The translations under genes were made by a program, and so were the position numbers. Of a stretch of DNA of 64,000 nt, positions 5,079 through 19,919 are shown piece after piece. A model generated the notes under the pieces. That model searched no databases. It was given only the letters and a program-made list of their open reading frames with translations, and was not told where the DNA came from. Within the stretch, counting starts at the first letter, position 1. Each line of letters opens with the position of its first letter. This stretch comes from a bacterium (GTDB taxonomy: Bacteria > Zhuqueibacterota > Zhuqueibacteria > Residuimicrobiales > Krinioviventaceae). The stretch covers positions 96,001 through 160,000 of the forward strand of contig CAXXFV010000027.1 in the NCBI GenBank assembly GCA_963674595.2, in the 5' to 3' direction.

Positions 5079-5187
5079 CCTCCTGCTTATTATTACTCAT
5101 TTAGCAAGAGGCCTTATATTGACAGGATCTGGTAGTCCGCTAAATGTAAACCCACAAAATAAAATAATTTCAGGACATCTAAAAAAT

Positions 5188-5955
5188 ATGGAACAACTAA
5201 TAGAAACATTTAAAACAAAATTACATGCAGGTGAGCCACTTTATGGTTTATTTTCCAAATCAAGCGATCCTGCATTTATAGAAATATCAGGCTATGCAGG
5301 CTTTGACTTTATCATCCTTGATATGGAGCATGGCGCTGTGGGATATGAGTCACTGCAAAATTTGATAAGAGCAACCTTTGCAGGAGGTATTTTACCTGTT
5401 GTTAGAGTTCAAAGTATTGAAGAAACATTAATAGGAAAAGCATTTGATGCAGGTGCACTGGGGGTTCAGATACCACAGGTTACAAATGTCAAAGATGCCG
5501 AATCAGCAATAAAGGCTTCAAAATTTTATCCTTTAGGTGAAAGAGGTGTTTGCAGGTTTGTTAGGGCCGCTAAATATTCATCCCTGGATAAAACCTCGTA
5601 TTTCAGGGAAGCAAATCAATGTCTGGTAATATTACAAGTTGAGGGTCAACAGGCTATAAACGAAATAGACCATATAATTGCTGTTGAAGGATTTGACATT
5701 CTTTTTATCGGTCCATATGATTTATCCCAATCGCTAGGTTTACCGGGAGAAGTAACCCATCCCAAAGTAATTAATCAAATGAAAATGATTGTCGAAAAAG
5801 CCCAAAAAGCCGGCAAAATAGTCGGGACGTTCACAGATACCCCATCACAGGTTAAACTTTGGCGGGATGCCGGGATACAATATATTGCTTACTCAGTTGA
5901 TGTAGGTATATATTATGACGCTTGCACGCAAATACTTGAAAAGATAACTGAATAA
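5188..5955 (+). CDS. HpcH/HpaI family aldolase
   Basis: GFDFIILDMEHG, FYPLGERG, ILQVE, FIGPYDLSQSLG motifs; ATG at 5188 preferred over TTG at 5119. Confidence 0.9.
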   Translation: MEQLIETFKTKLHAGEPLYGLFSKSSDPAFIEISGYAGFDFIILDMEHGAVGYESLQNLIRATFAGGILPVVRVQSIEETLIGKAFDAGALGVQIPQVTNVKDAESAIKASKFYPLGERGVCRFVRAAKYSSLDKTSYFREANQCLVILQVEGQQAINEIDHIIAVEGFDILFIGPYDLSQSLGLPGEVTHPKVINQMKMIVEKAQKAGKIVGTFTDTPSQVKLWRDAGIQYIAYSVDVGIYYDACTQILEKITE

Positions 5956-5965
5956 AAGGAAACTG

Positions 5966-7213
5966 ATGAAAAATATTTTTACTAAATGCTGGTATTTACT
6001 GCTCTCGGTTGGACCGGGCATTTTTTGTATTGGTTATACTATTGGCACCGGAAGCGTTACTTCAATGATCAAATCAGGCAGTCAATATGGAATGCAGTTA
6101 CTGTGGGTTTTATTCCTTTCAACTTTTTTTGCATGGATATTAATGGAGACCTTTGGGCGCTTTGCCGCTGTTACAGGAGGCACAGCAATTCACAGCTTTA
6201 AAACCAGGCTAAAGTATGGCAAGTTGATAGCAATATTAACAATTATTGGAGTTGTCATCGGGCAGTGGAATTCACTTTCCGGTATACTGGGTTTATCATC
6301 CCATGCAATTTATGAAATGTTACACCTGTTTATTCCCGGCATGGCCAAAGAAAGCTATTGGGGCGTACTGGCTATTGCTGTTGCAATTATCATTATTTTA
6401 TATAGTTTGCTGCTTATCGGCAGATATTCGTTTTTTGAAAAAATTCTCATAATTTTTGTTACTCTAATGGGTTTATCCTTTATCGTGTCTATGTTTATAG
6501 TTATGCCGCCTTTGGAGGTTATCGGCAAAGGATTTATCCCGCGTATTCCTGTTGGTGGCAGTCTCATGGTGGCAGCATTTGTCGGAACAACAATGGCAGC
6601 ACCAACATTTATTGTTCGACCTCTTCTTGTAAAAGAAAAAGGCTGGGGCATAGGAAACCTGCGTGAGCAAAGCCGGGATGCACTAATTTCCTCATTATTT
6701 ATGTTTTTTATCAGCGCATCTATTATGGTGGTTGCAACAGGCGCCTTGTTTTTTAAAGGCAGATCAGTTGAGAATGTACTTGATATGGTCTATTCTCTAG
6801 AACCGATAGCCGGCAAGTTCGCCATTGCCATTTTTATGGTCGGAACGCTTAGTGCGGGACTATCTTCTGTTTTTCCAATTTTAATGGTTGCTCCCCTGCT
6901 CATTGGTGATTACAGAAATGGAGAAATGGATATTAAATCTAAATTATTTAAAATATTAACGGCTTTTGCCTGCTTAATCGGACTCACTGTACCTATACTG
7001 GGGGCAAATCCTATAATAGCACAAATAGCTACACAGGTTGCCAATGTTTTTATTTTACCTTTGATCATTTCAGCTATTCTATTCCTGATTAATAATAAAA
7101 AACTGATGCAGGAACATAAAGCAGGACTTTTTTTGAATATGGGATTAATTTTGGCTTTACTTTTTTCATTAATTATATCATATACAGGAATTATCGGTCT
7201 TTTAGAATTGTAA
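5966..7213 (+). CDS. NRAMP-family transporter
   Basis: GPG..IGTGSV..GSQYGMQLLW; about 11 TM helices; AAFVGTT. Confidence 0.85.
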   Translation: MKNIFTKCWYLLLSVGPGIFCIGYTIGTGSVTSMIKSGSQYGMQLLWVLFLSTFFAWILMETFGRFAAVTGGTAIHSFKTRLKYGKLIAILTIIGVVIGQWNSLSGILGLSSHAIYEMLHLFIPGMAKESYWGVLAIAVAIIIILYSLLLIGRYSFFEKILIIFVTLMGLSFIVSMFIVMPPLEVIGKGFIPRIPVGGSLMVAAFVGTTMAAPTFIVRPLLVKEKGWGIGNLREQSRDALISSLFMFFISASIMVVATGALFFKGRSVENVLDMVYSLEPIAGKFAIAIFMVGTLSAGLSSVFPILMVAPLLIGDYRNGEMDIKSKLFKILTAFACLIGLTVPILGANPIIAQIATQVANVFILPLIISAILFLINNKKLMQEHKAGLFLNMGLILALLFSLIISYTGIIGLLEL

Positions 7214-7780: not shown

Positions 7781-10084
7781 TTATTTTAACAATATCATCC
7801 TTTTCATTTGAGTCATGGAACCACAGGTCAGAGTATAAAAATATATTCCACTGGGCATATTTACAGCATTCCATTGGTATTCATAGTTTCCCGGGGAAAG
7901 CTGCTCATCAACTAACGTGGCAACAAGTTGACCTGTTATGTTGTAAATTAAAAGTGTAACATGATTTGCAGCCGGTATTGAAAAACAAATTGTCGTAGCC
8001 GGATTAAAGGGATTGGGATAATTTTGTTCAAGAATAAATTGTGTAGGAATTTCGGTGAATTGATCACTCGCCACGTCAGTCATTCCGTCAACATTTTGAC
8101 TTGAAAAAGTCGGGCTCATTTGTACAAAAGTTCCTGTTCCGTTTGGATATCTGCCTGTTGATATGTCCGATGTTTGTTCGCCAAAACTTGTTTCATCTAC
8201 TATGGTTGTGTCGCTACTAGATAAATATATAGCTTCTCCTGAAGCGGAAAGTTTAAAATTCGCATGTAATCCCTCCTGCTCTTCATCTTTATCGGCCCAC
8301 ACAATTAAATAACTCCTGGCTGCGATAAATGTATCGGGAAATACCCACTGTGTAAGATCGTCAGCATCATCAGATAAAAAATATCCTGATAGCTGTATAT
8401 CATTTTCTGTATTATTGTAAAATTCAATCCAGTCATCATAATCTCCATATGCATCGGTGATTATGGACTCATTACTTGCCATAAATTCGTTAATAACCAA
8501 ATCACCCGAAACTGTTACAGAATAGAATTCAAAAGCAGCGCGTTCAGGTGAAAAAGATGCTGCATTCTCATTTTCCGCATAGATATAATATTGAAAACCA
8601 CTCGTCCCGGTTGCAACCAATGCCCCATAAATTCCATCCCCGGCAGCGTTGTCATTGTTACTACCGTCATCCAACATCTCTATTTTTTTATAATCAGTTG
8701 TTAAACCCGTTCGATAGGCCAATTGTACTGAACTTGCTCCTGATACATTGGCTGTTATATATACTTTTGAATTGGCGGATGGATTTGACGGACTTTTAAT
8801 TTCTGAAATTACCGGTTTCTCCGCCTGAAAATCAGAAAGTGAATTCAAATAGGCAACTCTTGAATCCATTAACTGAGTAATCCCAATGATGGACTCATTT
8901 TGTCCGGGTCTCCCTTCAATGTTGATAGCATTATCAATATTATTTTTAAAATCCGAATATGTATAAAACTTGTTGGGATCGTTCAGTACATCATCGTCAA
9001 TAATTTCCTGAATTTCCAACGCCCGGGTCCGATACAACCCATTTATCAAAAAATCATCCATAATTGTCTTCATGTGTGCTACATACATTTTTTTATATGT
9101 TGGATTGCTCAATATTTTACTAATAATTGGAAAATCACTATTAGTCGAATTTAAGAAAGGATCTAATTGCTGCAAACCGTTAATGCTGAGCTGATCCTCA
9201 TGCAAAAGTCTGGAAAATACTCCAAAATTTTCATTCAGGTCCCAAATAATCGGATTAAAATGTCCGGCATCATCCTGATATAAATAATAATTATGAGCAA
9301 AATTAACAGGTGAATCTAAATTTACGAATAAAATATCAAAGGCCAGCATCCACAAATGGCGGTCAACATTTAATACGTCCTCCACAGATTCAGAGTTATT
9401 ATTCAATACATCGAGAAAGTTGATCAGTTCTCCCCATCCATATTCAGATTCTAATTCATAATAATTTGCATAACTTGATGAATCCTGACCCAAATAATCC
9501 CAAATTATTACATAGGCTTGCGTTCCACCGCTTGCCAACTCGCCTTTAAAAAAAGCATTTTCATCACTACTAAAATGACTCCGTAAAAAGTGCTTGTCAA
9601 CATCCTGAACGCTTGTATAAAGGCCTATATAAGAGTTATTTATGTAAACGTTAGCATAGTTGGCCAAACCAGCAGGCATATATTCTCTGGCAATCTCATA
9701 TCCCAATACTTCCCTTATAAAACTGGGATCTTTATATACATTAGCAAGTTTTAATGTACCGTAATTTTCATGCAACTGGTCTTCTATAATATAATCAAGT
9801 TTTATATTAAGTGGATTTTTATCCTGGTTAGGATTATAGCTGCTGTTTCCTTTATATCTGACACCAACACTATCATATTTAATACCATTCACGACAACCG
9901 TTGCCAACAAACGCTCTTCATTTCCCTCTAAAAACAATTTATCTAATAAATAATCCCAATTTGGTTCTTCAAAAGTCAATTCGATTGTATTAATTGTGTT
10001 AACGTTATAAAAATCCTGACTAAAAATTTTTACAGCGGAAAATAACAAATAAACCATTAATGCCATTGCAGAGACATTTTTCAT
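7781..10084 (-). CDS. CotH kinase-family protein with lamin-tail domain and C-terminal T9SS/FlgD-type sorting domain
   Basis: VGVRYKGNSS, HNYYLY, PIIWDLN (CotH); VINEFMASN..DWIEFYN (LTD); QNYPNPFNP C-terminus. Confidence 0.9.
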   Translation of the reverse strand: MKNVSAMALMVYLLFSAVKIFSQDFYNVNTINTIELTFEEPNWDYLLDKLFLEGNEERLLATVVVNGIKYDSVGVRYKGNSSYNPNQDKNPLNIKLDYIIEDQLHENYGTLKLANVYKDPSFIREVLGYEIAREYMPAGLANYANVYINNSYIGLYTSVQDVDKHFLRSHFSSDENAFFKGELASGGTQAYVIIWDYLGQDSSSYANYYELESEYGWGELINFLDVLNNNSESVEDVLNVDRHLWMLAFDILFVNLDSPVNFAHNYYLYQDDAGHFNPIIWDLNENFGVFSRLLHEDQLSINGLQQLDPFLNSTNSDFPIISKILSNPTYKKMYVAHMKTIMDDFLINGLYRTRALEIQEIIDDDVLNDPNKFYTYSDFKNNIDNAINIEGRPGQNESIIGITQLMDSRVAYLNSLSDFQAEKPVISEIKSPSNPSANSKVYITANVSGASSVQLAYRTGLTTDYKKIEMLDDGSNNDNAAGDGIYGALVATGTSGFQYYIYAENENAASFSPERAAFEFYSVTVSGDLVINEFMASNESIITDAYGDYDDWIEFYNNTENDIQLSGYFLSDDADDLTQWVFPDTFIAARSYLIVWADKDEEQEGLHANFKLSASGEAIYLSSSDTTIVDETSFGEQTSDISTGRYPNGTGTFVQMSPTFSSQNVDGMTDVASDQFTEIPTQFILEQNYPNPFNPATTICFSIPAANHVTLLIYNITGQLVATLVDEQLSPGNYEYQWNAVNMPSGIYFYTLTCGSMTQMKRMILLK

Positions 10085-10402
10085 TATCTACTCCTTTTGC
10101 TTAACATCTTTTTTATATAGTTGAATTGTTTGGCATTTTTTATAAGATTTGTTGCTTACATCTTTAATACCTTTGACTCCTTTTTTTAAAAAAACATGCG
10201 CAGAAATTAAAAATAAATTCAGCTAAATAGAAAAAGATTGTTATAAAAAAATGTATGCAGCATTTAAAAAATAATCAAGAAGCAGGAAATTGATGAGGAA
10301 CAGGTATGTAATAAATCTGACCTAATGACATATATATTTATTTGTTAAGGCAATTCCGACAGAATTTAGGTATTTCCCCCCTGTTGAAAACGTTAAATAA
10401 AT

Positions 10403-11216
10403 TTATTTCAGCGCTCCGGCTGACAATCCTTTCACAAAAGTTTTTTGCATAATTAAAAAGATAAATAAAGGCGGAATACTAAACAAGACGGCGGCTGCGG
10501 ACATTGTGGTTCCACACGTCTGTATATTCACCGACAAACATACCAATACCGACCGGGATAGTTCTCACCGTATCAGAAGTGCTCAGAATTAATGCAAAGA
10601 AAAACTCATTCCAGGAGCCTAAAAAAGCAAATAAAGCTGTTGCGCCCAAACCCGGTAACGCGAGCGGTAAAAGTACTTTGATCAGACACGTCATTTTCGA
10701 ACAGCCGTCGATTAAAGACGCGTCTTCAATTTCCTTGGGGATCGTTTTAAAAAATCCATAAAGCAGCCAGATTACAAATGGCAGCATAACTGCGGTATGG
10801 GTTAAAATTAATCCGATATAGGTATCATACATTCCTGCTTTTCTGATAACCTGAAAAAGAGGTATGATAACCGAAGCGCCGGGAAGCATTTGCGATAATA
10901 AAAAGACCATTAAAAACAACTCTTTTCCTTTAAAATTAAACCGCGAAAAAGAAAATGCCGCCAAACTGCCGATTAATAATGTTAAAAAAGTTGCTGAAAG
11001 AGCAACAACCAAACTATTCACCGTATATTGACCGAAAGGCAAATAGTCAAACATACCTTTATAGGGCTGCAAACTCATATCTTGAGTTACCCATTCCGGC
11101 GGGTATTTATTCACTTGTGGCAATGGTTTTAAAGAGGTGGAAAACATCCACAGAAACGGAAGTAAAACAGCAAAAGCAATTATACTCAATAATATAATCA
11201 ATAACACCTTTTTCAT
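10403..11216 (-). CDS. Carbohydrate ABC transporter permease (MalG-type), +1 frameshift near 10507
   Basis: EAA loop IPKEIEDASLIDGC; removing one base gives the canonical end MSAAAVLFSIPPLFIFLIMQKTFVKGLSAGALK* at 10403. Confidence 0.9.
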
Positions 11217-12079
11217 AGCTCTTCCTTTTTGTTCAGAATTTTAAGGTAAACAAAAGAAAGCGAAATCAACACTGTGAACGTTATAATAGAAAGTGCAGAT
11301 CCTTTTCCAAGATCAAAATGAACAAAAGAATATTCACGAACAAGCACAGGCAGTACCATGGAGGCATGAATAGGGCCTCCCCGTGTCATAACAAATACCA
11401 TATTAAAATCGTTAAAACTCCAGATCATTCCCAATAACAACAACACACTGGTAACTGAACTAAGATTAGGCATGGTGATATGAATAAATTTGCCTACGAT
11501 AGAAGCCCCGTCTACATTCGCCGCTTCATACTGTTCACGGGGAATGGATTGAAGTCCGGCATAGAACATAACCATAGCAAAAGGAAAAAACTGCCAGACT
11601 CTTGCAATGATGACACATATTAAAGCTGTTCCGGCGCTGCCCAGCCAGGTAATACCTTCTTTAAGGATTCCCGAACGGGTTAGCCAGTAATTAACCAGAC
11701 CGAAATTGTCGTTTAATATCCATTTCCAGGCAAATCCGGCAACAACCGGTGATACGACCCAGGGAATGGTATACAAAAATTTATAAAAATTATTGACTTT
11801 AAGCTTTGTGTTTAATAACAGGGCTATTCCCAATCCCAAAGATAACGAGACCAACGTCCCTAAAACCGAGTATAATACGGTATTTTTAAGTGAAAGCCAG
11901 AAAACATCATCGTGCAAAACATGAAAATAGTTTTTTAATCCGATCCAGCCATTGGTCCCATCAATGAGGCTGACATGCATAAAACTGTTGATTAAATTTT
12001 GAAAAAGAGGATATACCAACACAAATATAGTAAAAATTAATGCAGGTGCTAATAACAGATAAGGCAAATATTTTTTCAT
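11213..12079 (-). CDS. Carbohydrate ABC transporter permease (MalF-type)
   Basis: AGLQSIPREQYEAANVDGA; ITMP; MTRGGP. Confidence 0.92.
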   Translation of the reverse strand: MKKYLPYLLLAPALIFTIFVLVYPLFQNLINSFMHVSLIDGTNGWIGLKNYFHVLHDDVFWLSLKNTVLYSVLGTLVSLSLGLGIALLLNTKLKVNNFYKFLYTIPWVVSPVVAGFAWKWILNDNFGLVNYWLTRSGILKEGITWLGSAGTALICVIIARVWQFFPFAMVMFYAGLQSIPREQYEAANVDGASIVGKFIHITMPNLSSVTSVLLLLGMIWSFNDFNMVFVMTRGGPIHASMVLPVLVREYSFVHFDLGKGSALSIITFTVLISLSFVYLKILNKKEEL

Positions 12080-13368
12080 TTATTGCCCTCAATAATATCC
12101 TGTGCCTCTTTTGCAGCCAATTCCAAAGCTTTTTCAACTGTCAATTCACCAATGATGGCTTTTTGACCATAAGGCGCAATAACATTTCTAACAATAGTGA
12201 TCATTTTAGGATGTGCCGGCCAGGGTTTTGCGTATTGCAATTCATGAACAAATACATCAAAATGCGGGAAAGGTTTTTTCTCCGGACTGTTTATGGCTTT
12301 TAATGTTGTGGGAAATGCGCCCATATCTTGCCGGATCCATTCCATGTCGGCTTCTTCATTTCTTAAATATTTTGTCAGTTGCCATGCCTCATTCAGATGT
12401 TTTGAATGGGCACTTATGGCTATCATAACCATGTCCTGTAATGTAGGCGCTGTATCGTACTGGTCTATTTTATCATCAGGAACCGGGACCGGTACGGACA
12501 TAAATCCCATACCGGGATTTTTCTCTTGTATAACAAAATTCATCCAGGGGCCTTCTATAGCCATCGCTACCTTTTTACCGCAAAAGAGATCATTTATTTC
12601 TGTGTGAGAATAAGCTAAAAATCCCGGTGTTATGGACTTGTCTTTTTGATACATATCCGTAAGAAGCTGAAGCGCGCCGGCACTTATTTCATTGTTAAAT
12701 GTTACTTTGGTCAAATCATCGGACAGAAAGGTCCCCCCTGCTTTTAATATAAAAGGAGCAAGACGGTAGGAAAAACCTCCGCGATCACCTCCCAGTAAAG
12801 TCATACCCCATTGATCAATAGCGCCGTCTCCATCTAAATCTTTAGTCAGCTTTTTTGCCGTAGCGCGAAACTCCGACCATGTTTTAGGAGGTGTCAGACC
12901 TTCTTTATTAAATAACTCTTGATTGCAGACAAGAACAAAAGCCATTCCCGTGCCGGGTAATCCATAATAGTTATCTTTATATCGGCAAGCTTCAAAAAGA
13001 TTCGGTTGGTACCAGGTCCTTACGGAATCAAAATCAGGAAAATTATTGACAGGATATAAATGCCCGGATTCACCAAATTCAGCAGCATAGTTGGCATGGA
13101 TGCGCATAACATCCGGTCCTGTACCTGTGCTAAAGTTGGTATATAAAAGTTCACGAATCATATTCCAACTTTTTTGCCCCTGTATGACTTGAACAACAGG
13201 ATGTTTTTGGTTAAAAGAAGCAACTCTTTCTTTTGTCCATTTCATCATTGTGGGTGAACCGCCAAAGGCCCAAAACTGAATTTTGATAATATTGCTGTCG
13301 GTACCACATGTTAGAAAAAACGCGATTGTTATCACTAAAATTGAACAAATGACCAGCAAACGTTTCAT
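12076..13368 (-). CDS. Sugar ABC transporter substrate-binding lipoprotein
   Basis: Lipobox FLTC; GPDV; PPKTWSEF; GKKVAMAIEGPW. Confidence 0.9.
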   Translation of the reverse strand: MKRLLVICSILVITIAFFLTCGTDSNIIKIQFWAFGGSPTMMKWTKERVASFNQKHPVVQVIQGQKSWNMIRELLYTNFSTGTGPDVMRIHANYAAEFGESGHLYPVNNFPDFDSVRTWYQPNLFEACRYKDNYYGLPGTGMAFVLVCNQELFNKEGLTPPKTWSEFRATAKKLTKDLDGDGAIDQWGMTLLGGDRGGFSYRLAPFILKAGGTFLSDDLTKVTFNNEISAGALQLLTDMYQKDKSITPGFLAYSHTEINDLFCGKKVAMAIEGPWMNFVIQEKNPGMGFMSVPVPVPDDKIDQYDTAPTLQDMVMIAISAHSKHLNEAWQLTKYLRNEEADMEWIRQDMGAFPTTLKAINSPEKKPFPHFDVFVHELQYAKPWPAHPKMITIVRNVIAPYGQKAIIGELTVEKALELAAKEAQDIIEGNK

Positions 13369-13523
13369 TGATCCCTCCGAAGCAGTTATATTTACATTTC
13401 AGCTATTCTCCAAATACCCTTTTATTTTAGAACGACAAATAACTTTTTAAATGGCTCGTTAAATTTGAGCTTCTAACCTATTCTTTTGATACCAGTATTT
13501 ATTAACAAAATATTATTTTCCAA

Positions 13524-14627
13524 TTAATCACGATTGGTTAATTCACACGCTGTCTTGATAAATGTAATAAAATTTTCAGGCGGTGTACCGGGTAGGACAG
13601 CATCAGCAGTAGAAATAATATGCTTCCATCCGGCAACATCATTTATCATTTTTTTTGTCGCAGAACGAATTTTATCGGGTGTGCCGCCTCGCAGCAGGTC
13701 TAAATTTAAATTACCTTTAGTGCAAATTTGTGAATCAATAAACTGCCTCGATTCTGCCAAATTATTATCACCTTCCGGAGGGGGAGCAATTGTTTCAATT
13801 ACATCGGCTCCCATTAAATTAAAAGTGCCATCTTTAATCAATTTTTTTGTAAAGCCACAATTATGATACCAAAACAAGCTATTGTGTTCATGAGTATATT
13901 TTGAAAATTCAGTAATATAAGGTAAATCCATTTCATAAAAAAGCTGGGGCGAAGTCATTTCCAGGCCGTAACTGGAGTCACTCATAAAGTCAATACCTTG
14001 CTCCATTGCAATCGACATGACATATTTTGATGCATGAAAAAAGGCATCCATACTTTTTTTAAACGTTTGCGGGAAATCATGCCATTGCAAATAAATTGCT
14101 TGTGGATTGATCTGATAGCCTAACCATGAAGGATGAGGGTGCCCGGCGACAATAACGCCGTCTTCACCGACTCTTTCCCGAAAATTTTGAAAATACCGGC
14201 GGATATCTGTTTCTCTTTCATGAACATGCTCGCAAATGAAAACAAATTTTTCATGATCTTTTTCTGAATGGACCGGGCAATCTGCTGTATCGCTCCAGGG
14301 TATTTCATCTTTAGGAAATTTATGCTGCCACTCGCCATGAGAGGTTTCAATTGTACAAAATTTGTAAAAACTGTCTGATTTTTTTTTATCTTCTTTCCAG
14401 GGAAAAACAAGAGATGAAAATTCCGTCATAAACATTGGCGCGTAATCCAATGCTTTGGCTAGCTTTATTTCATTTTTAATAAAATCATCTCCAGTCTCTA
14501 ATCCCAAAAAATAAAGTGTATTTTTTATAACATCAGGATCAGGTAAAAAAGGGGAAACGATGTGTTGAGATGTTTCTCCCCGAACGTATGATAAAAATTG
14601 TTCTCTTTTTGATCTAGTATTTTTCAT
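13524..14627 (-). CDS. Uroporphyrinogen-decarboxylase / MtaA-CmuA superfamily protein
   Basis: SPQLFYEM, WYHNCG, IETIAPPPEG, KGNLNL, IISTADAVLPGTPPEN. Confidence 0.8.
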   Translation of the reverse strand: MKNTRSKREQFLSYVRGETSQHIVSPFLPDPDVIKNTLYFLGLETGDDFIKNEIKLAKALDYAPMFMTEFSSLVFPWKEDKKKSDSFYKFCTIETSHGEWQHKFPKDEIPWSDTADCPVHSEKDHEKFVFICEHVHERETDIRRYFQNFRERVGEDGVIVAGHPHPSWLGYQINPQAIYLQWHDFPQTFKKSMDAFFHASKYVMSIAMEQGIDFMSDSSYGLEMTSPQLFYEMDLPYITEFSKYTHEHNSLFWYHNCGFTKKLIKDGTFNLMGADVIETIAPPPEGDNNLAESRQFIDSQICTKGNLNLDLLRGGTPDKIRSATKKMINDVAGWKHIISTADAVLPGTPPENFITFIKTACELTNRD

Positions 14628-14671
14628 TGTTAACCTATAAAAAATTATACCTGGTTCCAGTATTAAGCGTG

Positions 14672-16903
14672 TTAATTTTCATCAATTATTCGGTTAACAA
14701 CCATTTGCCGCATTTCTTCTGATAGACTGGCAAAATAGGCGCTAAACCCGGTAACCCGAACCACCAAATCCGGAAATTTGGAAGGATCTTTATGTGCCTC
14801 TAAAATTTTCTTTTTATCCACAATATTAAAATTAATTTGTGTTCCGCCCATTTTAAAATGGGTTTGGATCAAACTGGCAACCTGATCAATATTATAGCTG
14901 TTTGTGCCAAATCCCGGATCAAGTTCCATTTGCATCGGTGCGGTATTGCCAAATCCCGGTTGAACCGCTGCAACAATATTTGACAACGCTGTGGGTGCTG
15001 AATCTTTACGGAATCCGGGATCAGGATTCGGGCCATGCGAAATAGGACTTTTATCAAATCTTCCGTTCGGTGTAGCGCCAACATCAAGGCCCATTAACGT
15101 ATGTGCGGCCCAGGAAAAAATGCCGGGAACCATCTTAAATCCATGTGGCGTCTTTTTTTCAGTGGTATATTTAGTAAAAATTTTTGAAACACGTTTACCA
15201 TACTCGTCTGCACGTGAGTTTCCGCTTCCATAACGCGGAATGCTTTTCATCATTAAACGTACCTTTTCACCTTCTGGTGTCTGCCAGTCGGCATCCATTA
15301 TATTTTTAATTTCTTTCCAACTTGCTCTTTTTTCTTTTTCTATCCGTTGTTCCAATGCGGCAAATGAATCTGCAACCGTTGCCAGACCGGCAGCATCTAC
15401 ACAAAGGTTAACGTATTTAACACCGCCGTGAGATGCATCCCGTCCTCTTTCAATTACATCATGACATAATAAATCCAAATGTAATTCAGGGAAAACATTG
15501 AACATGTGGTCAATATGATAATCAAGACTTTGGGCTGTTACATCAACAGCTCTATTTAAATGAAATTCAAAACGGTCCCATAATAAACTTGTACAGGGTT
15601 CAACCGATTCGTTTTCCATCATATCTTTCCATGCAACTTGAAAGACAGCGGCAAGATTGATTTTTACACAATCATTAACCGTATATTCTACACCTGGTAA
15701 GGCACTCCAGTGACATCCTGAATAAGCACGTTGTCGCGCCAATTCAACAGGATACCCATTTTTTGTAAATCCTTCAACAGTTTGATTTACACCTAAAAAT
15801 TTTGGAATACCGGTTTTGTCTTTAAACATGATTTCAAGCCCGCGATGCAAAAGCCTGGGATCACAATTATCACCGACACATACCCCGATATTTGCAGGGA
15901 TTTTTAAACGATGTGCTGCTTCCAAAACTAAAAAAGATAACTCATTTGTTGCATCATTACCATTATTATCCGGTCCGCCAAGCTGCATATAGCTTGTATC
16001 CTGAATCAAGTAGCAGGCAAGGTGAAAAATGGCTTCTTCATCAGTTAGAATCCCCGCATTTTTATCTTGTTGATAAAATGGATACAAAAATTGATCAACG
16101 CGCCCTAATGCACCACCCATATTGTACATTTTTCCGGCCATTTGGTACCAGGCCATCCATTGAGCAGCTTCACGAAATGTTGCCGGCGGATCAGAAACCA
16201 GTTTTGTATTAATTGCCGCGATTTTCAGCAAATTTTGTTTTATTTGCGGATTTTCTTCTGTCCCGGCCATTTCTAATGCGGCCCTGGCCGTTCGACCGAT
16301 CCAGCTTTGGAACCCTAATACCGTATCTTCAAGACCGTCATATAATTCCTGAGCTTCGTCATCCGTATTAACTTTACGATAATGACGGATTTTATTTAAA
16401 ATTCCACCCCATCCTAATTTAAAACCTATTGTTATATCCGGACAGAAATGTTGTACAGCACCAATTCCATGGCTCATTTTATATTTATCGTGATCCGCTT
16501 TAAGGTGTGCATAATCAAAATCCGGGTTCCAAAAGGGATCACGGTGTGATAAAAAGTTGGTCATATAACCACCGGCCAGTGAACTGATGGGATCGATATA
16601 AACCGGATGAATTTCCAAAAGTTTTCTGAAATTTTTGCCACATGATCGTGCTCCGAAAAATCCTCCGCTGGGATGGTTTGCTTCGGGTTCAAATTCCTTT
16701 AACAATACATCGGTTATAGGAACACCGGAACCACTGATAACCTCAACGATATTCCTGGATTCGGGTGGCGGCAAGATAATAGCATGATCATCAAAATCCA
16801 TGGAACCGATAACGTCCCACTTTTCTTTTGTATGCTTTAATTTTGTTTTCCGAAGCGCGTCAATGCGCTCCTGGTATGAGTATTTAACAAGATTGTCCTT
16901 CAT
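14672..16903 (-). CDS. Glycyl radical enzyme (PFL superfamily), uncharacterised subtype
   Basis: Gly-radical motif DLVVRVTGFSAYF; LGRVDQFLYPFY; GATPNGR; Cys loop YSGCHWS. Confidence 0.92.
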   Translation of the reverse strand: MKDNLVKYSYQERIDALRKTKLKHTKEKWDVIGSMDFDDHAIILPPPESRNIVEVISGSGVPITDVLLKEFEPEANHPSGGFFGARSCGKNFRKLLEIHPVYIDPISSLAGGYMTNFLSHRDPFWNPDFDYAHLKADHDKYKMSHGIGAVQHFCPDITIGFKLGWGGILNKIRHYRKVNTDDEAQELYDGLEDTVLGFQSWIGRTARAALEMAGTEENPQIKQNLLKIAAINTKLVSDPPATFREAAQWMAWYQMAGKMYNMGGALGRVDQFLYPFYQQDKNAGILTDEEAIFHLACYLIQDTSYMQLGGPDNNGNDATNELSFLVLEAAHRLKIPANIGVCVGDNCDPRLLHRGLEIMFKDKTGIPKFLGVNQTVEGFTKNGYPVELARQRAYSGCHWSALPGVEYTVNDCVKINLAAVFQVAWKDMMENESVEPCTSLLWDRFEFHLNRAVDVTAQSLDYHIDHMFNVFPELHLDLLCHDVIERGRDASHGGVKYVNLCVDAAGLATVADSFAALEQRIEKEKRASWKEIKNIMDADWQTPEGEKVRLMMKSIPRYGSGNSRADEYGKRVSKIFTKYTTEKKTPHGFKMVPGIFSWAAHTLMGLDVGATPNGRFDKSPISHGPNPDPGFRKDSAPTALSNIVAAVQPGFGNTAPMQMELDPGFGTNSYNIDQVASLIQTHFKMGGTQINFNIVDKKKILEAHKDPSKFPDLVVRVTGFSAYFASLSEEMRQMVVNRIIDEN

Positions 16904-16980
16904 CGAACCTCTCCAAATCGGCTCAATATTAATAAAACTAATGGGAATTATATATTAGAGTATTAATAATTTTTTATAAA

Positions 16981-17922
16981 TTATATTACTAAAACACCAA
17001 AATCACCGGCAATATTTTTTAATTCATCCATTTTATTATTATTCAATAACTGCAAATGTTGGGCTTTATATTCCAATCCCAGACTAGAATATTTATTTGC
17101 AGCTAATTTATGAAAAGATAATAATTCATATTGAATATCACAGCTCTTCGCCCCTGAATAACCGTTATTATTACGCAGTTCCATCAAACTTTTTATAAAG
17201 GAAGCAATTTCACTTATTTCTTCAGGTGTGTCGTTAAAGGTTGGAATAACAGGCGTTCGAAATAATATCGGCTTGTTAGTATGGGCAAGGTTGCGTGCGT
17301 TTTCGATTATTTTCTCATTCGCCTGACCTGTCGCTTGACGGTGCTTTTCAGAATTCATGTGCTTGAGGTCCATCATTACCAAATCTATAAAGGGCAATAG
17401 CCCGGCAAGTTTCTTCCAGTCATAATTCCCACAGGTTTCAATTGCCGTATGTATATTTTCCCTTTTACAGCTTTCCAGTATGGCCTTGGCAAATTCTCCG
17501 CTTAAAACCGGTTCACCTCCTGAGAGAGTTACGCCGCCTTTGGAATCTTTATAATAAGCGGAATCGCTTAAAATTTCATCCATTACCTGCCCGACGGTCC
17601 ACTCTTTGCCTGTCAATTCAAGAGCCCCGGTGTAACAGGTATCGACACAAGCGCCGCATTTTACGCATCTTTCCCTGTTATAAATATGGATGTTGTTACT
17701 CGCTATATGGGCAGCATTAGAACAAGCTTTTACGCACTCCAGGCATCCGATACACCGATCTGCAATGTATTTGATTTGTGAATGGGTTGGTCTTCCCTCA
17801 GGATTATGGCACCAATAACAACTCATGGTACATCCTTGCAAAAATACAGTCGTTCTGATGCCAGGGCCGTCATGAATGGAAAAGCGTTGTATATTAAAAA
17901 GGATTCCCGTTTGTCTCAACAA
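16981..17922 (-). CDS. Glycyl-radical enzyme activating protein (radical SAM with 2x[4Fe-4S] ferredoxin insert)
   Basis: HDGPGIRTTVFLQGCTMSCYWCHNPE; CIGCLECVKAC and CVKCGACVDTC; GGVTLSGGEP. Confidence 0.95.
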   Translation of the reverse strand: MLRQTGILFNIQRFSIHDGPGIRTTVFLQGCTMSCYWCHNPEGRPTHSQIKYIADRCIGCLECVKACSNAAHIASNNIHIYNRERCVKCGACVDTCYTGALELTGKEWTVGQVMDEILSDSAYYKDSKGGVTLSGGEPVLSGEFAKAILESCKRENIHTAIETCGNYDWKKLAGLLPFIDLVMMDLKHMNSEKHRQATGQANEKIIENARNLAHTNKPILFRTPVIPTFNDTPEEISEIASFIKSLMELRNNNGYSGAKSCDIQYELLSFHKLAANKYSSLGLEYKAQHLQLLNNNKMDELKNIAGDFGVLVI

Positions 17923-18200
17923 ATTACTTTCATATTGACGAATTTGACAAGGTTTAATCAGGATTATTTTGAATTTTTTATCTTTTACAAATATCTAAAA
18001 ATACAGCGAGAAATAATCCTAACTGGTAATGACGGTTAATTTTCAGAATTTAATTTAAAGAAAAACGAAAATCAACATAAAAATATAATATATCTCTTTT
18101 TTTAGCAGGTTAACAGCCAATGTAAATTTTGTAATTATTTTAAATTTATTGCTTTAAAAAAAGACAAATACATTTTTGTAATTATTTTTCAATATTCCCA

Positions 18201-18410
18201 AAAACATCTTGCGCCATTATTAAATAATTTGTATAATTATTTTGTCAGTTTTAGTCTGTTTTTCAAAATGATTGGGATTCTACATTTTTATATAAAAGAC
18301 TTGCTGATTTTCCATTTTTAACACGGGATGTTACGGTACTCATGAGGAAGAGATTGCGTCGGATTAAAAATCATATTCCTGCTAACACACTGTCTTACCT
18401 GTTGGGATTG
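18201..18410 (+). ncRNA. Candidate structured non-coding RNA or leader, copy A
   Basis: TTGCGC-17bp-TATAAT promoter then two stem-loops; homologous to 57331-57560. Confidence 0.45.
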
Positions 18411-18771
18411 ACCAGGTCTGTCTGGTTCTTATTGATTAACACAATTCCTGAATTTTCGTTCACTAATTTAAACTCTCCGTTAATATTTAACAGATTACGC
18501 CTTTTATTTATTATGACATTGTATTGGAGTGTCTATTTAAAACAATGCTGTCACAATGCCTGTGTTACTTTTAAACTTTGATATTTAAAATCAGGCTGTT
18601 GGTATTTTAATTATATATATAATTCTAAATACTGAAAAAGTTTAAGCTGATCGCGATAAATTGGTTACATCAACTTGACAATTACCACATTTCAGTTACC
18701 CGGCTTGATTACAGGTTGCATAGCCCGGGAATAAGGAATGATAGGTACAACGGCAGAAAGAAGGTTCTTCC

Positions 18772-19233
18772 ATGAATAAATACAAGCTCTCAATAACCGG
18801 TCTTTTAGTTTCAGTCATTGTGTACCTCGTTACTCGTTTTACCAAGTATGATTTGTTTGAAAACTTTATTAAAGCTCTTCAGAATTTTGAAAGGCACGAA
18901 ATAGATGAATTTATAATTCCTGTTGTGATCTTTATGATATTTTTGCTAATTGAATTATTTAGGAAAAACCAACATTTATCTGTTGAAAATGAAAAAATTA
19001 AAATATACAAGGCTATGCTGCGTTCAATTCATTATATACTTAATAATTTTCTCAACCAAATGGAGTTGTTTTTAATTACGGCACAGGATATTGAAGAGTT
19101 TCCTGATGATATATTAGCTCTATATGAAGACATTTCAAAAGATGCGAATGCGCAAATTGAAGCATTAAGCAATATCTCTTCAATTAATCCCTCATCTATT
19201 GAAATGTCAATCTTGCCAAAATCAAATGGATAA
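18772..19233 (+). CDS. Hypothetical membrane protein (2 TM plus HisKA-like helical tail)
   Basis: 153-aa ORF; two hydrophobic segments; IHYILNNFLNQM. Confidence 0.6.
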   Translation: MNKYKLSITGLLVSVIVYLVTRFTKYDLFENFIKALQNFERHEIDEFIIPVVIFMIFLLIELFRKNQHLSVENEKIKIYKAMLRSIHYILNNFLNQMELFLITAQDIEEFPDDILALYEDISKDANAQIEALSNISSINPSSIEMSILPKSNG

Positions 19234-19361
19234 TTTATAATAAATAAATGAGGTTGTTAAATAGAGAATTAAGTATAGCAAGTAATAAAACTGGAAATTA
19301 ATTTTTAATATTTTGTAAGATGTAAACTCTCCGTTCATCATCCGATTTGGAGGTGTTCAAA

Positions 19362-19919
19362 ATGGAATTACGTCAAATCGCATATACGGCGCGTCAGCGT
19401 GTCGAAACGACATTCGATGGAATTAAAAGGTTCTCAAAGCTGGAAAGAGTACTCGCACTTGTCTGCATTCTAATTCCTGCATTGCTGATCATATTTGATA
19501 ACGGTCCTGTTCGCCCCAGTATCAGTGCCTATTATGATATGGAAAAGAACCAGGTTTATTACTTTTCTTTAACTGTCGCATCCATGCTATTCATTGTAAA
19601 TGGTATTGTAAAAAGAAAAAAAATATATAATACCATACTGGGTATAATGCTTGCCGGATTAATATTATTTAATCATGAGGATGCATGTGTTTTACATTTT
19701 ATTTTTGCAGCAATATTTTTCAGCGGTAATGCGCTGGTTATGGTTATTTACACACCAAGGAAGGAATTATGGTTTAAAATTCTTTTGGTACTTTGTATTG
19801 TGATTTCAATGCTTGTATTTTTTATTTTCAAGTGGGGCACATTATTTTTTGCGGAATGGCTGTCATTTACAATTATCGCTGTGCATTATGTTCTGGAGTC
19901 ATTAGGTTTAATACATTAA
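19362..19919 (+). CDS. Hypothetical integral membrane protein (DUF998-like)
   Basis: GGAGG RBS before ATG 19362; SISAYY motif; about 6 TM helices; LHFIFAAIFF. Confidence 0.65.
   Translation: MELRQIAYTARQRVETTFDGIKRFSKLERVLALVCILIPALLIIFDNGPVRPSISAYYDMEKNQVYYFSLTVASMLFIVNGIVKRKKIYNTILGIMLAGLILFNHEDACVLHFIFAAIFFSGNALVMVIYTPRKELWFKILLVLCIVISMLVFFIFKWGTLFFAEWLSFTIIAVHYVLESLGLIH

Follow-up and report, generated by a model that had tools for sequence, protein, structure and literature searches.

A Cys-x-Trp glycyl radical enzyme in a six-gene cassette that probably marks an undescribed oxygen-free breakdown pathway

What does a glycyl radical enzyme (GRE) do when the catalytic glutamate of the loop that known eliminases and isomerases carry is replaced by tryptophan? 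This question is raised by a locus at positions 10403 to 17922 of a 64,000-nucleotide stretch of DNA, analysed at its full length and called the window here (positions 96,001 to 160,000 of contig CAXXFV010000027.1, assembly GCA_963674595.2), from a bacterium of the Krinioviventaceae (Zhuqueibacterota). Six co-oriented genes had been reported there in a first-pass annotation, and six open reading frames on the minus strand were indeed found, separated by short gaps or overlapping their neighbours by 4 bases; they encode a radical S-adenosylmethionine (SAM) GRE-activating enzyme (activase), the GRE, a protein of the uroporphyrinogen decarboxylase (URO-D) fold, an extracellular solute-binding protein (SBP) and two permeases of an ABC importer, and all six assignments are backed by Pfam and NCBIfam models. 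The cassette probably marks an undescribed pathway of oxygen-free breakdown. The reading put forward here, to which an even chance is given, is that the importer, an accessory step by the URO-D-fold protein and a GRE working independently of the glutamate together act on a carbohydrate-like compound.

The glycyl radical enzyme and the Cys-x-Trp clade

The GRE gene (14672..16903, minus strand) encodes 743 amino acids (aa) with matches to the barrel domain of the pyruvate formate lyase (PFL)-like enzymes (PF02901, 298 bits) and to the C-terminal glycyl radical domain (PF01228, 49.7 bits). The intact RVTG glycine loop and the GCHW thiyl loop reported in the first-pass annotation were confirmed at residues R716-V717-T718-G719 (codons at 14747..14758, minus strand) and G396-C397-H398-W399 (codons at 15707..15718, minus strand), respectively, the latter aligning with GCVE or GCTE of solved GREs. 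In HMMER alignments C397-H398-W399 falls on C-V-E of PflD (8yjo) and glycerol dehydratase (1r8w) and on C-T-E of 6lon, and C397 takes the position of the catalytic cysteine of all three. The annotation had described the change as His-Trp for Val-Glu; both residues are replaced, with the correction of detail that it is Trp399 that stands at the position of the catalytic Glu and His398 at that of the Val (C+1). The enzyme therefore has C397-H398-W399 in place of the C-x-E motif of eliminases and isomerases, and the residue before C397 is Gly396, so that the paired cysteines of PFL and TdcE are likewise absent.

The activase (313 aa; 16981..17922, minus strand) scores 351 bits with TIGR02494 (cut-off 174), below every substrate-specific equivalog cut-off, and has a CX3CX2C motif at residue 31 and CX2CX2CX3C motifs at residues 57 and 86, in agreement with a ferredoxin-like insert with two clusters. 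It was the sole activase homolog found in the window genome with this query. A related contig (run X4) has an 8-base insertion at 16965, in the spacer between activase and GRE. As read from sequence, a complete radical system is encoded (a GRE with Gly719 and Cys397, plus its radical-SAM activase), and the domains, radical loops and cognate activase are all those expected of a member of the PFL-like branch of the GRE superfamily.

Regarding the loop glutamate, the consulted part of a June 2026 GRE review (PMC13450708) states that all six C-O eliminases and three isomerases keep CXE, and describes the CXE Glu in CutC and three C-S lyases as well, which bears out the annotation's statement that characterised eliminases use Cys-x-Glu. 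The same part reports Glu491 of CutC as essential, confines paired cysteines on the Cys loop to PFL and TdcE, notes that PFL and phenylacetate decarboxylase also lack the loop Glu, and has entire GRE clades awaiting validation, with no archaeal PFL-like GRE of characterised function; it contains no mention of a C-x-W class (PMC13450708). No description of the C-x-W loop or of a GRE/URO-D pairing was found in the literature, where an unnamed cluster in the supplements of earlier similarity-network studies could match. The one paper listed under both enzyme names is a Desulfitobacterium proteome study.

No characterised GRE accounts for the finding. Every NCBIfam GRE model scores far under its cut-off: the best is TIGR01774 (262 bits, cut-off 678), and others are those for HpsG and HpfG (222 and 216, cut-off 1000), HypD (215, cut-off 1100), CutC (176, cut-off 1050) and PFL (TIGR01255, 83, cut-off 994). 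The best solved relatives are PflD, the glycerol and propanediol dehydratases, HpsG and CutC (E 1e-55 to 1e-40), with PflD 8yjo as the best sequence match (E 9e-55), and they are about equally distant (18-22% identity by fold). The AlphaFold2 (AF2) model, with a mean predicted local distance difference test score (pLDDT) of 82, matches 96 PDB chains (E <= 0.001), the top-ranked chains listed being all GREs, and its best fold match is again PflD (TM-score 0.76, 22% identity). The nearest solved GRE is thus at about 22% identity, and clustering at high identity with a characterised enzyme, the finding that would have told against novelty, was not seen. Public records name members of the family 'pyruvate formate lyase family protein' or 'formate acetyltransferase', and the GRE is the single PFL-like gene of the window genome (6.6 Mb, 37 contigs). 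These are its likenesses to PFL and TdcE, from which it differs in having no adjacent Cys pair and in that PFL (1h16) matches residues 512-740 only (E 2e-16).

In an exhaustive search of 1.84 billion representatives, 986 match the GRE at E <= 1e-30, other GREs being among them. The 120 closest (at least 66% identical) have GCHW in 114 cases, GC[QN]W in five and no motif by the pattern used in one, so GCHW is no chance feature; RVTGF is present in all 120 (RVTGFSA in 119, RVTGFTA in one). An alignment of 90 rows, the query and 89 full-length sequences from the best 150 matches, contains 26 C-x-W, 52 C-x-E and 12 other loops. In an unrooted FastTree phylogeny, a quick method, built without the loop columns, the 26 C-x-W rows form one side of a branch with SH-like support of 99; the loop thus defines a clade, a point that the first-pass annotation had proposed to test for GCHW members. 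Of the two halves of this clade, one has GC[H/N/Q]W (15 rows, among them the window GRE, which groups with P0241 at 57% identity in a 12-row set, all C-x-W) and the other GC[F/Y/Q/G/P]W[Y/F] (11 rows). Within the clade C397, W399, G719 and D411 are invariant and H152 and T718 nearly so; Thr in RVTG, Asp411 and [F/Y]-S-[W/H] at 596-598 are its further common features, the position of Thr718 being mostly Ala or Ser in C-x-E representatives. At the level of sequence, this shows a large C-x-W clade with no characterised member, in whose sequences the eliminase/isomerase Glu is always Trp. Sister subfamilies have Asn or Gln at the position of His398, and the other half of the clade has Phe, Tyr, Gly or Pro there; since the residue varies in this way it cannot, judging by the alignment, be a general catalytic base.

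The clade is widespread. A scan for the Gly-loop pattern in species-representative genomes matched at least 590 stretches, 579 of which were confirmed as relatives; the best 80 loci of the at least 579, to which the locus counts below refer, have 55-71% GRE identity and all come from metagenome-assembled genomes. Their labels include Bacteroidota, Ignavibacteria, 'Cytophagia', Anaerolineae and other Chloroflexota, Acidobacteriota, Planctomycetota, Lentisphaerae, Spirochaetes, Poribacteria, Gemmatimonadota, Clostridia, Bathyarchaeia (4 loci) and Nitrososphaeria (1 locus), and all records seen for the clade are of uncultured organisms. Closer to the window, orthologs at 63-75% identity occur in 11 of 40 related genomes, all from two sister families of the same order, and in none of 18 further genomes from the family to which the window belongs. 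That identity stays so high between phyla and domains, and that presence among close kin is patchy, suggests, from these comparisons, that the GRE has spread horizontally under strong constraint. Five loci with members at 55-59% identity (L100, L106, L114, L123, L127) are in metagenome-assembled genomes labelled Bathyarchaeota/Bathyarchaeia and Nitrososphaeria, and the GRE crosses domains if this archaeal binning is right. One Thermoflexales-type genome (G044; L021, L062/L064, L160, L161) has five C-x-W GRE copies, two of them in tandem, and at least 15 URO-D-family matches to the URO-D-like protein of the window.

It could be argued that the chemistry is a known one with the base relocated, the enzyme being a diol or glycerol dehydratase or a PflD/YbiW-like anhydro-sugar isomerase in which another residue or water deprotonates the substrate. 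The best sequence and fold matches, PflD and the propanediol and glycerol dehydratases, speak for this. With PflD/YbiW, which opens the rings of 1,5-anhydromannitol-6-phosphate and 1,5-anhydroglucitol-6-phosphate, the GRE has in common a barrel of ten strands, both the Gly and the Cys loop, an activase bearing a ferredoxin-like insert and a setting of carbohydrate type; with the B12-independent glycerol and 1,2-propanediol dehydratases (1r8w, 5i2g, 9rco) it aligns over residues 149-738, at TM-scores of 0.73-0.77 by fold. From the 1r8w alignment and family conservation, His164, Tyr339 and Asp447 of glycerol dehydratase are kept as H152, Y305 and D411, whereas Glu435 is Trp399, Val434 is His398, Ser282 is Ala265 and Tyr640 is Phe596, with W598 following; Ser282, Asp447, Tyr339 and Tyr640 each have a role in that enzyme. 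That of His164 is described in PMC13450708. An aldehyde dehydrogenase directly upstream of the GRE in two loci (L105, L126), as for an aldehyde-forming eliminase, is also on this side. The differences are nevertheless considerable. The identity to PflD is about 22%, the first ~150 residues of the window GRE are unaligned, and Trp399 stands where PflD/YbiW has its own glutamate (Glu433/Glu443), hydrogen-bonded to the substrate C2-OH in the part of PMC13450708 that describes it; the window cassette, moreover, imports by an ABC system and has neither kinase nor phosphotransferase system, so a phosphorylated substrate is not indicated. The dehydratases have a Gly loop of the form RV(A/S)G whereas that of the window GRE is RVTG. 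Above all, C-x-W is a deep separate branch and is not scattered within C-x-E groups, the solved enzymes are all equally distant, the NCBIfam equivalog scores lie 4- to 12-fold under their cut-offs, and all twelve eliminases and isomerases in the consulted part of PMC13450708 keep C-x-E, with Glu491 of CutC essential. A relocated base is therefore considered unlikely, and a Glu-independent GRE is preferred.

The importer, the genomic neighbours and the substrate

Regarding the substrate, the importer is of the CUT1 type, with a family-1 SBP (430 aa; 12076..13368, minus strand; PF01547 and PF13416) and two PF00528 permeases whose stop and start codons overlap. Permease 1 (288 aa; 11213..12079, minus strand) overlaps both of its neighbours by 4 bases. 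The nearest NCBIfam models are the maltose, galacto-oligosaccharide and chitobiose binding proteins for the SBP and UgpA, GlcT and MalF, all below cut-off, for permease 1; all NCBIfam equivalogs for the importer are far below cut-off. The set thus resembles the CUT1 importers of the MalEFG, UgpABE and Tlet_1705 type in its SBP_bac_1 binding protein and two BPD_transp_1 permeases, and differs from them in these low equivalog scores and in having no ATPase gene in the cassette, the rest of the genome not having been searched for one. CUT1 systems often share an ATPase encoded elsewhere. The best solved relative of the SBP is 5ci5 (E 1.4e-33), listed in the consulted parts of two papers as Tlet_1705 with alpha-D-tagatose bound, an analogy that weakly favours a ligand of monosaccharide size.

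In the wider GRE family, the most recurrent further neighbours are GFO/IDH/MocA oxidoreductases, which flank the GRE in 7 of the 80 loci (directly upstream in L097, L112, L120 and L130, downstream in L077, L102 and L139) and in L021 and L026 occur nearby as ThuA-GFO fusions. Near the GRE there are also FGGY kinases and xylose-isomerase-like TIM barrels (L007, L112, L120), a split transketolase (L007) and aldehyde dehydrogenases (L105, L126), and many glycoside hydrolases lie near GRE homologs; a gene of the galactonate/mannonate dehydratase family is directly upstream of the GRE in four loci of the first set. Outside the nearest subclade the neighbours thus have a carbohydrate flavour and do not make up a defined pathway. 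A group of Anaerolineae homologs (L005, L010, L015, L028, L002, L004) has an upstream block of MFS, DUF362, MBL-fold (PhnP-like), fructosamine-kinase-like/APH and GH5-like genes, GH20-like and GH116 genes downstream and no activase in the flanks; this block was set aside as a pathway clue, its synteny being confined to about six related loci in metagenome-assembled genomes. A hydroxyproline-betaine link, to which a neighbouring gene of the enolase superfamily and a single MttB gene next to the GRE had pointed, was rejected because the enolase-family neighbour scores best with galactonate/mannonate dehydratase models.

From all of this the substrate is most likely a small carbohydrate-like compound. 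The first-pass annotation had read a different chemistry into His-Trp and named an imported sugar or polyol-type substrate, and both points we too can only infer from context. It is also conceivable that W399, Y305, F596 and W598, all aromatic, enclose a quaternary amine, or else an aromatic or some other hydrophobic compound, with the sugar context incidental. The activase, within the flanks in 35 of the 80 loci, is the only conserved neighbour in most of the family, an MttB-family methyltransferase stands beside one GRE (L028) and an ethanolamine ammonia-lyase is near another (L026), and the URO-D fold includes corrinoid-dependent methyltransferases, the nearest NCBIfam model being MtaA/CmuA. 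Such a non-carbohydrate substrate is nonetheless judged improbable in view of the CUT1 transporter and its nearest models of sugar-binding proteins, the tagatose listed for the nearest solved SBP, the sugar oxidoreductases, kinases and hydrolases recurring elsewhere in the family, and the absence of a betaine-type transporter or corrinoid protein from every cassette examined. The carbohydrate-like substrate is retained in what follows.

The URO-D-fold protein and the spread of the cassette

The third gene (13524..14627, minus strand) encodes a URO-D/MtaA-fold protein of 367 aa, probably a metalloenzyme. PF01208 matches it at 58 bits (cut-off 23.9) over profile positions 173-343 and in the C-terminal half of the protein only, not over the full length as for HemE, and a far better HemE candidate is present elsewhere in the genome (full-length match, 206 bits). 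The MtaA/CmuA models score low (TIGR01463 46 bits, cut-off 235; NF040654 37, cut-off 400). The AF2 model (pLDDT 92.6) matches MtaA (4ay7, E 8e-13), human and plant URO-D and then MetE, at 8-15% identity (10-15% for MtaA and URO-D), and searches of the ESM Atlas with the protein and of PDB profiles with the ortholog alignment returned only URO-D-family clusters and only plant URO-D (E 7e-4), respectively. H163, H165, H255, C257, E278, H336 and D342 are invariant in 42 orthologs, suggesting, on conservation, that they mark a metal site. Of these, H255-x-C257 resembles the His-x-Cys zinc motif of MtaA.

Orthologs keep H255-N-C257 invariant, with no invariant Cys downstream, where H336 and D342 are invariant instead. 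This bears on the possibility that the protein acts as a methyltransferase dependent on a corrinoid, in a pathway that would import and demethylate an O-methylated sugar or cyclitol and hand the product to the GRE, for which MtaA as top fold match and the H-x-C motif can be cited. Against it, the position of the third Cys ligand of MtaA reads H336-I-x-S-T-A-D342, TIGR01463 is as far below its cut-off as stated above, and no corrinoid protein partner, activating enzyme or second methyltransferase is present in the six full cassettes examined. The window genome has 41 URO-D (PF01208) matches against 7 matches to B12-binding domains over cut-off; of the two of these that were looked at, one is an open frame of 219 aa and the other a fusion with radical SAM. 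Methyl transfer is therefore regarded as distinctly improbable, and an accessory step of another kind is preferred for the URO-D-fold protein.

The paralogs of this protein were also surveyed. A general URO-D and ABC module was rejected, because only this one of the 41 adjoins CUT1 ABC genes. Ten of 17 surveyed regions of other paralogs have glycoside hydrolases, BNR proteins, SSF/RhaT transporters or GFO/TIM genes; the glycoside hydrolases (e.g., L143-L159) are GH5-like, GH38, GH28, GH31, GH4 and GH141, and GFO/IDH/MocA and xylose-isomerase-like genes adjoin URO-D paralogs as well. This suggests a URO-D fold with an unrecognised carbohydrate-related role. The fold has so far been tied to haem synthesis and methyl transfer.

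The order activase-GRE-URO-D-SBP-permease-permease is kept in all five loci with long flanks, from five related genomes (42-68% protein identity), while the flanks of these cassettes are unrelated save between two genomes of one genus; the six genes appear to be a compact catabolic cassette moving between lineages. Of the 15 loci at 63% GRE identity or above, 13 have a URO-D ortholog immediately after the GRE, the two exceptions, L074 (activase-GRE-SBP-permease-permease) and an Anaerolineae locus (L090), having no URO-D gene. L074 is a natural cassette variant in this respect, well suited to showing by comparison what the accessory enzyme adds. At 61% GRE identity L079 has the order URO-D-activase-GRE and no ABC genes. 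Among the 40 relatives a URO-D ortholog (E <= 1e-30) was found in 10 of 11 GRE-bearing genomes and in none of the 29 others, the GRE of the remaining genome lying at a contig end. Because relatives are not independent samples and the genes lie together, what this co-occurrence mainly shows is inheritance of the cassette as one unit. Furthermore, 20 of the top-120 GRE and top-120 URO-D cluster representatives have a longest contig of exactly equal length and so apparently come from the same contigs.

The first-pass annotation had raised the question of a conserved URO-D and ABC neighbourhood, and this holds for the nearest subclade only, in which named records are Bacteroidota, Ignavibacteria or 'Cytophagia'; in the 55-62% identity range, most homologs (from Chloroflexota, Bathyarchaeia and other phyla) lack URO-D and ABC genes alike. 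The first 31 loci, for instance, have URO-D only in L001 and weak ABC matches only in L031. Other Chloroflexota-type GRE-bearing genomes have a URO-D ortholog in four of five cases (50-54% identity), unlinked in three, and in one Thermoflexales-type genome the URO-D gene (54%) lies 8 kb from a GCHWS-type GRE (57%), across a two-component system and a different ABC set. The pairing also comes up in unrelated arrangements in sister subfamilies, where one GCNW-type GRE paralog (44% identity) is directly followed by a distant URO-D paralog and another (47%) is preceded by SBP-permease-permease genes of the CUT1 type.

The last gene of the cassette, for permease 2 (PF00528; 10403..11216, minus strand), is frameshifted. 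The open reading frame called in the assembly (10479-11216) gives 245 aa, of which only residues 1-237 align with orthologs, and removal of one base at 10506 restores an ortholog-like C-terminus with a stop at 10403, the coordinate at which the first-pass annotation had begun the locus. Contigs of runs X3, X4 and X5, from three other studies (95-99% identity), do not have the extra base, and contigs of the best-matching run break there, with no cover of 10381-10506; the frameshift is therefore most likely an assembly error or a strain-level variant. That the cassette is decaying and importer and pathway inactive, as this 1-base frameshift after residue 237 and the 18 GRE-less genomes of the same family might indicate, is accordingly very doubtful, the five other genes being intact and their conserved motifs unchanged.

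A possible mechanism and the significance of the locus

In the sequence of events proposed, the importer would bring in a small, unphosphorylated, carbohydrate-like compound of about monosaccharide size, and the URO-D-fold protein, as a probable metalloenzyme, would carry out a lineage-specific accessory step before or after the GRE. The thiyl radical at Cys397 of the activated GRE would abstract a hydrogen atom from the substrate, and a C-O bond, possibly a C-C bond, would then be cleaved or rearranged without the Glu-assisted deprotonation of known eliminases. Trp399, Tyr305, Phe596 and Trp598 may form an aromatic, sugar-stacking pocket, and His152 and Asp411 may supply acid catalysis by protonating the leaving group. 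The substrate may already have a carbonyl or carboxylate next to the abstraction site, so that no base would be needed; here the URO-D-fold enzyme could introduce this group, and elsewhere GFO/IDH/MocA dehydrogenases could do so.

Several findings weigh against this reading. The neighbourhood is not conserved in most of the GRE family: a URO-D ortholog lies within the flanks in only 14 of the 80 loci, L079 is the only case among the 65 that are less than 63% identical, and the cassette of L074 does without the gene. In a sample of 151 genomes from the Anaerolineae-type class of a Thermoflexales-type genome, a few of them only partly scored among first-look candidates, the GRE (E <= 1e-100) was found in 22 and the URO-D ortholog (E <= 1e-60) in one; 21 of the 22 GRE-bearing genomes thus have no URO-D ortholog, the exception being the Thermoflexales-type genome, and the GRE therefore does not need URO-D. 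The loss of Glu is by itself no proof of new chemistry, as PFL and phenylacetate decarboxylase also lack it, and glycoside hydrolases are so abundant in these genomes that their proximity may be chance, just as the recurrent synteny among Anaerolineae may reflect kinship. The mechanistic steps themselves are drawn from sequence and context, and the AF2 model of the GRE is least confident at the active-site loops (147-152, 390-410 and 625-638), so that the aromatic pocket, taken from the alignment, is provisional. A URO-D ortholog found only with the GRE and a GRE mostly found without it do, on the other hand, fit an accessory lineage-specific step. The locus is best filed as a change of the catalytic loop at the level of a clade, accompanied in one lineage by a conserved accessory module.

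Regarding expression and surroundings, an Rfam search (E <= 1) over 10000-19500 gave no match and hence no riboswitch clue, promoter and terminator scans gave no signal above shuffled sequence, and none of the listed sequencing runs carrying the cassette stretch is recorded as RNA. Directly downstream of the cassette (7781-10084, minus strand) is a gene for a secreted protein of 767 aa with CotH, lamin-tail and type IX secretion sorting domains, which is not kept with the cassette in related genomes. An HpcH/HpaI aldolase gene followed by an Nramp-type metal transporter gene is present at 5119-7213 (plus strand), and elsewhere in the genome (L149) SSF, URO-D, Nramp and TIM-barrel genes stand together, so that a second Nramp gene follows a URO-D paralog; these Nramp genes may bear on metal supply to the enzymes discussed here.

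GREs carry out the formation of trimethylamine from choline, sulfite release, hydroxyproline breakdown and the use of anhydro-sugars, all without oxygen, and to our knowledge each newly assigned GRE clade has so far revealed a new pathway. The C-x-W clade is large, with at least 579 confirmed stretches in species-representative genomes, and since its members are named 'pyruvate formate lyase' or 'formate acetyltransferase', formate-lyase activity may be wrongly credited to Anaerolineae, Ignavibacteria, KSB1 and Bathyarchaeia in metabolic reconstructions. A broader proposal, held tentatively and somewhat more apt to be wrong than right, is that C-x-W GREs are a new mechanistic class performing Glu-free radical transformation of carbohydrate-derived compounds, repeatedly together with URO-D-fold metalloenzymes. 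The pathway would then occur widely among uncultured anaerobes living in sediments and digesters, in more than ten phyla including Bathyarchaeia, and would have been missed as 'pyruvate formate lyase'. Binding protein, accessory enzyme, GRE and activase come together in the cassette as a small unit that lends itself to testing, and which also offers a way into the large expansion of URO-D-fold genes seen in glycan-degrading bacteria, with 41 matches in the window genome.

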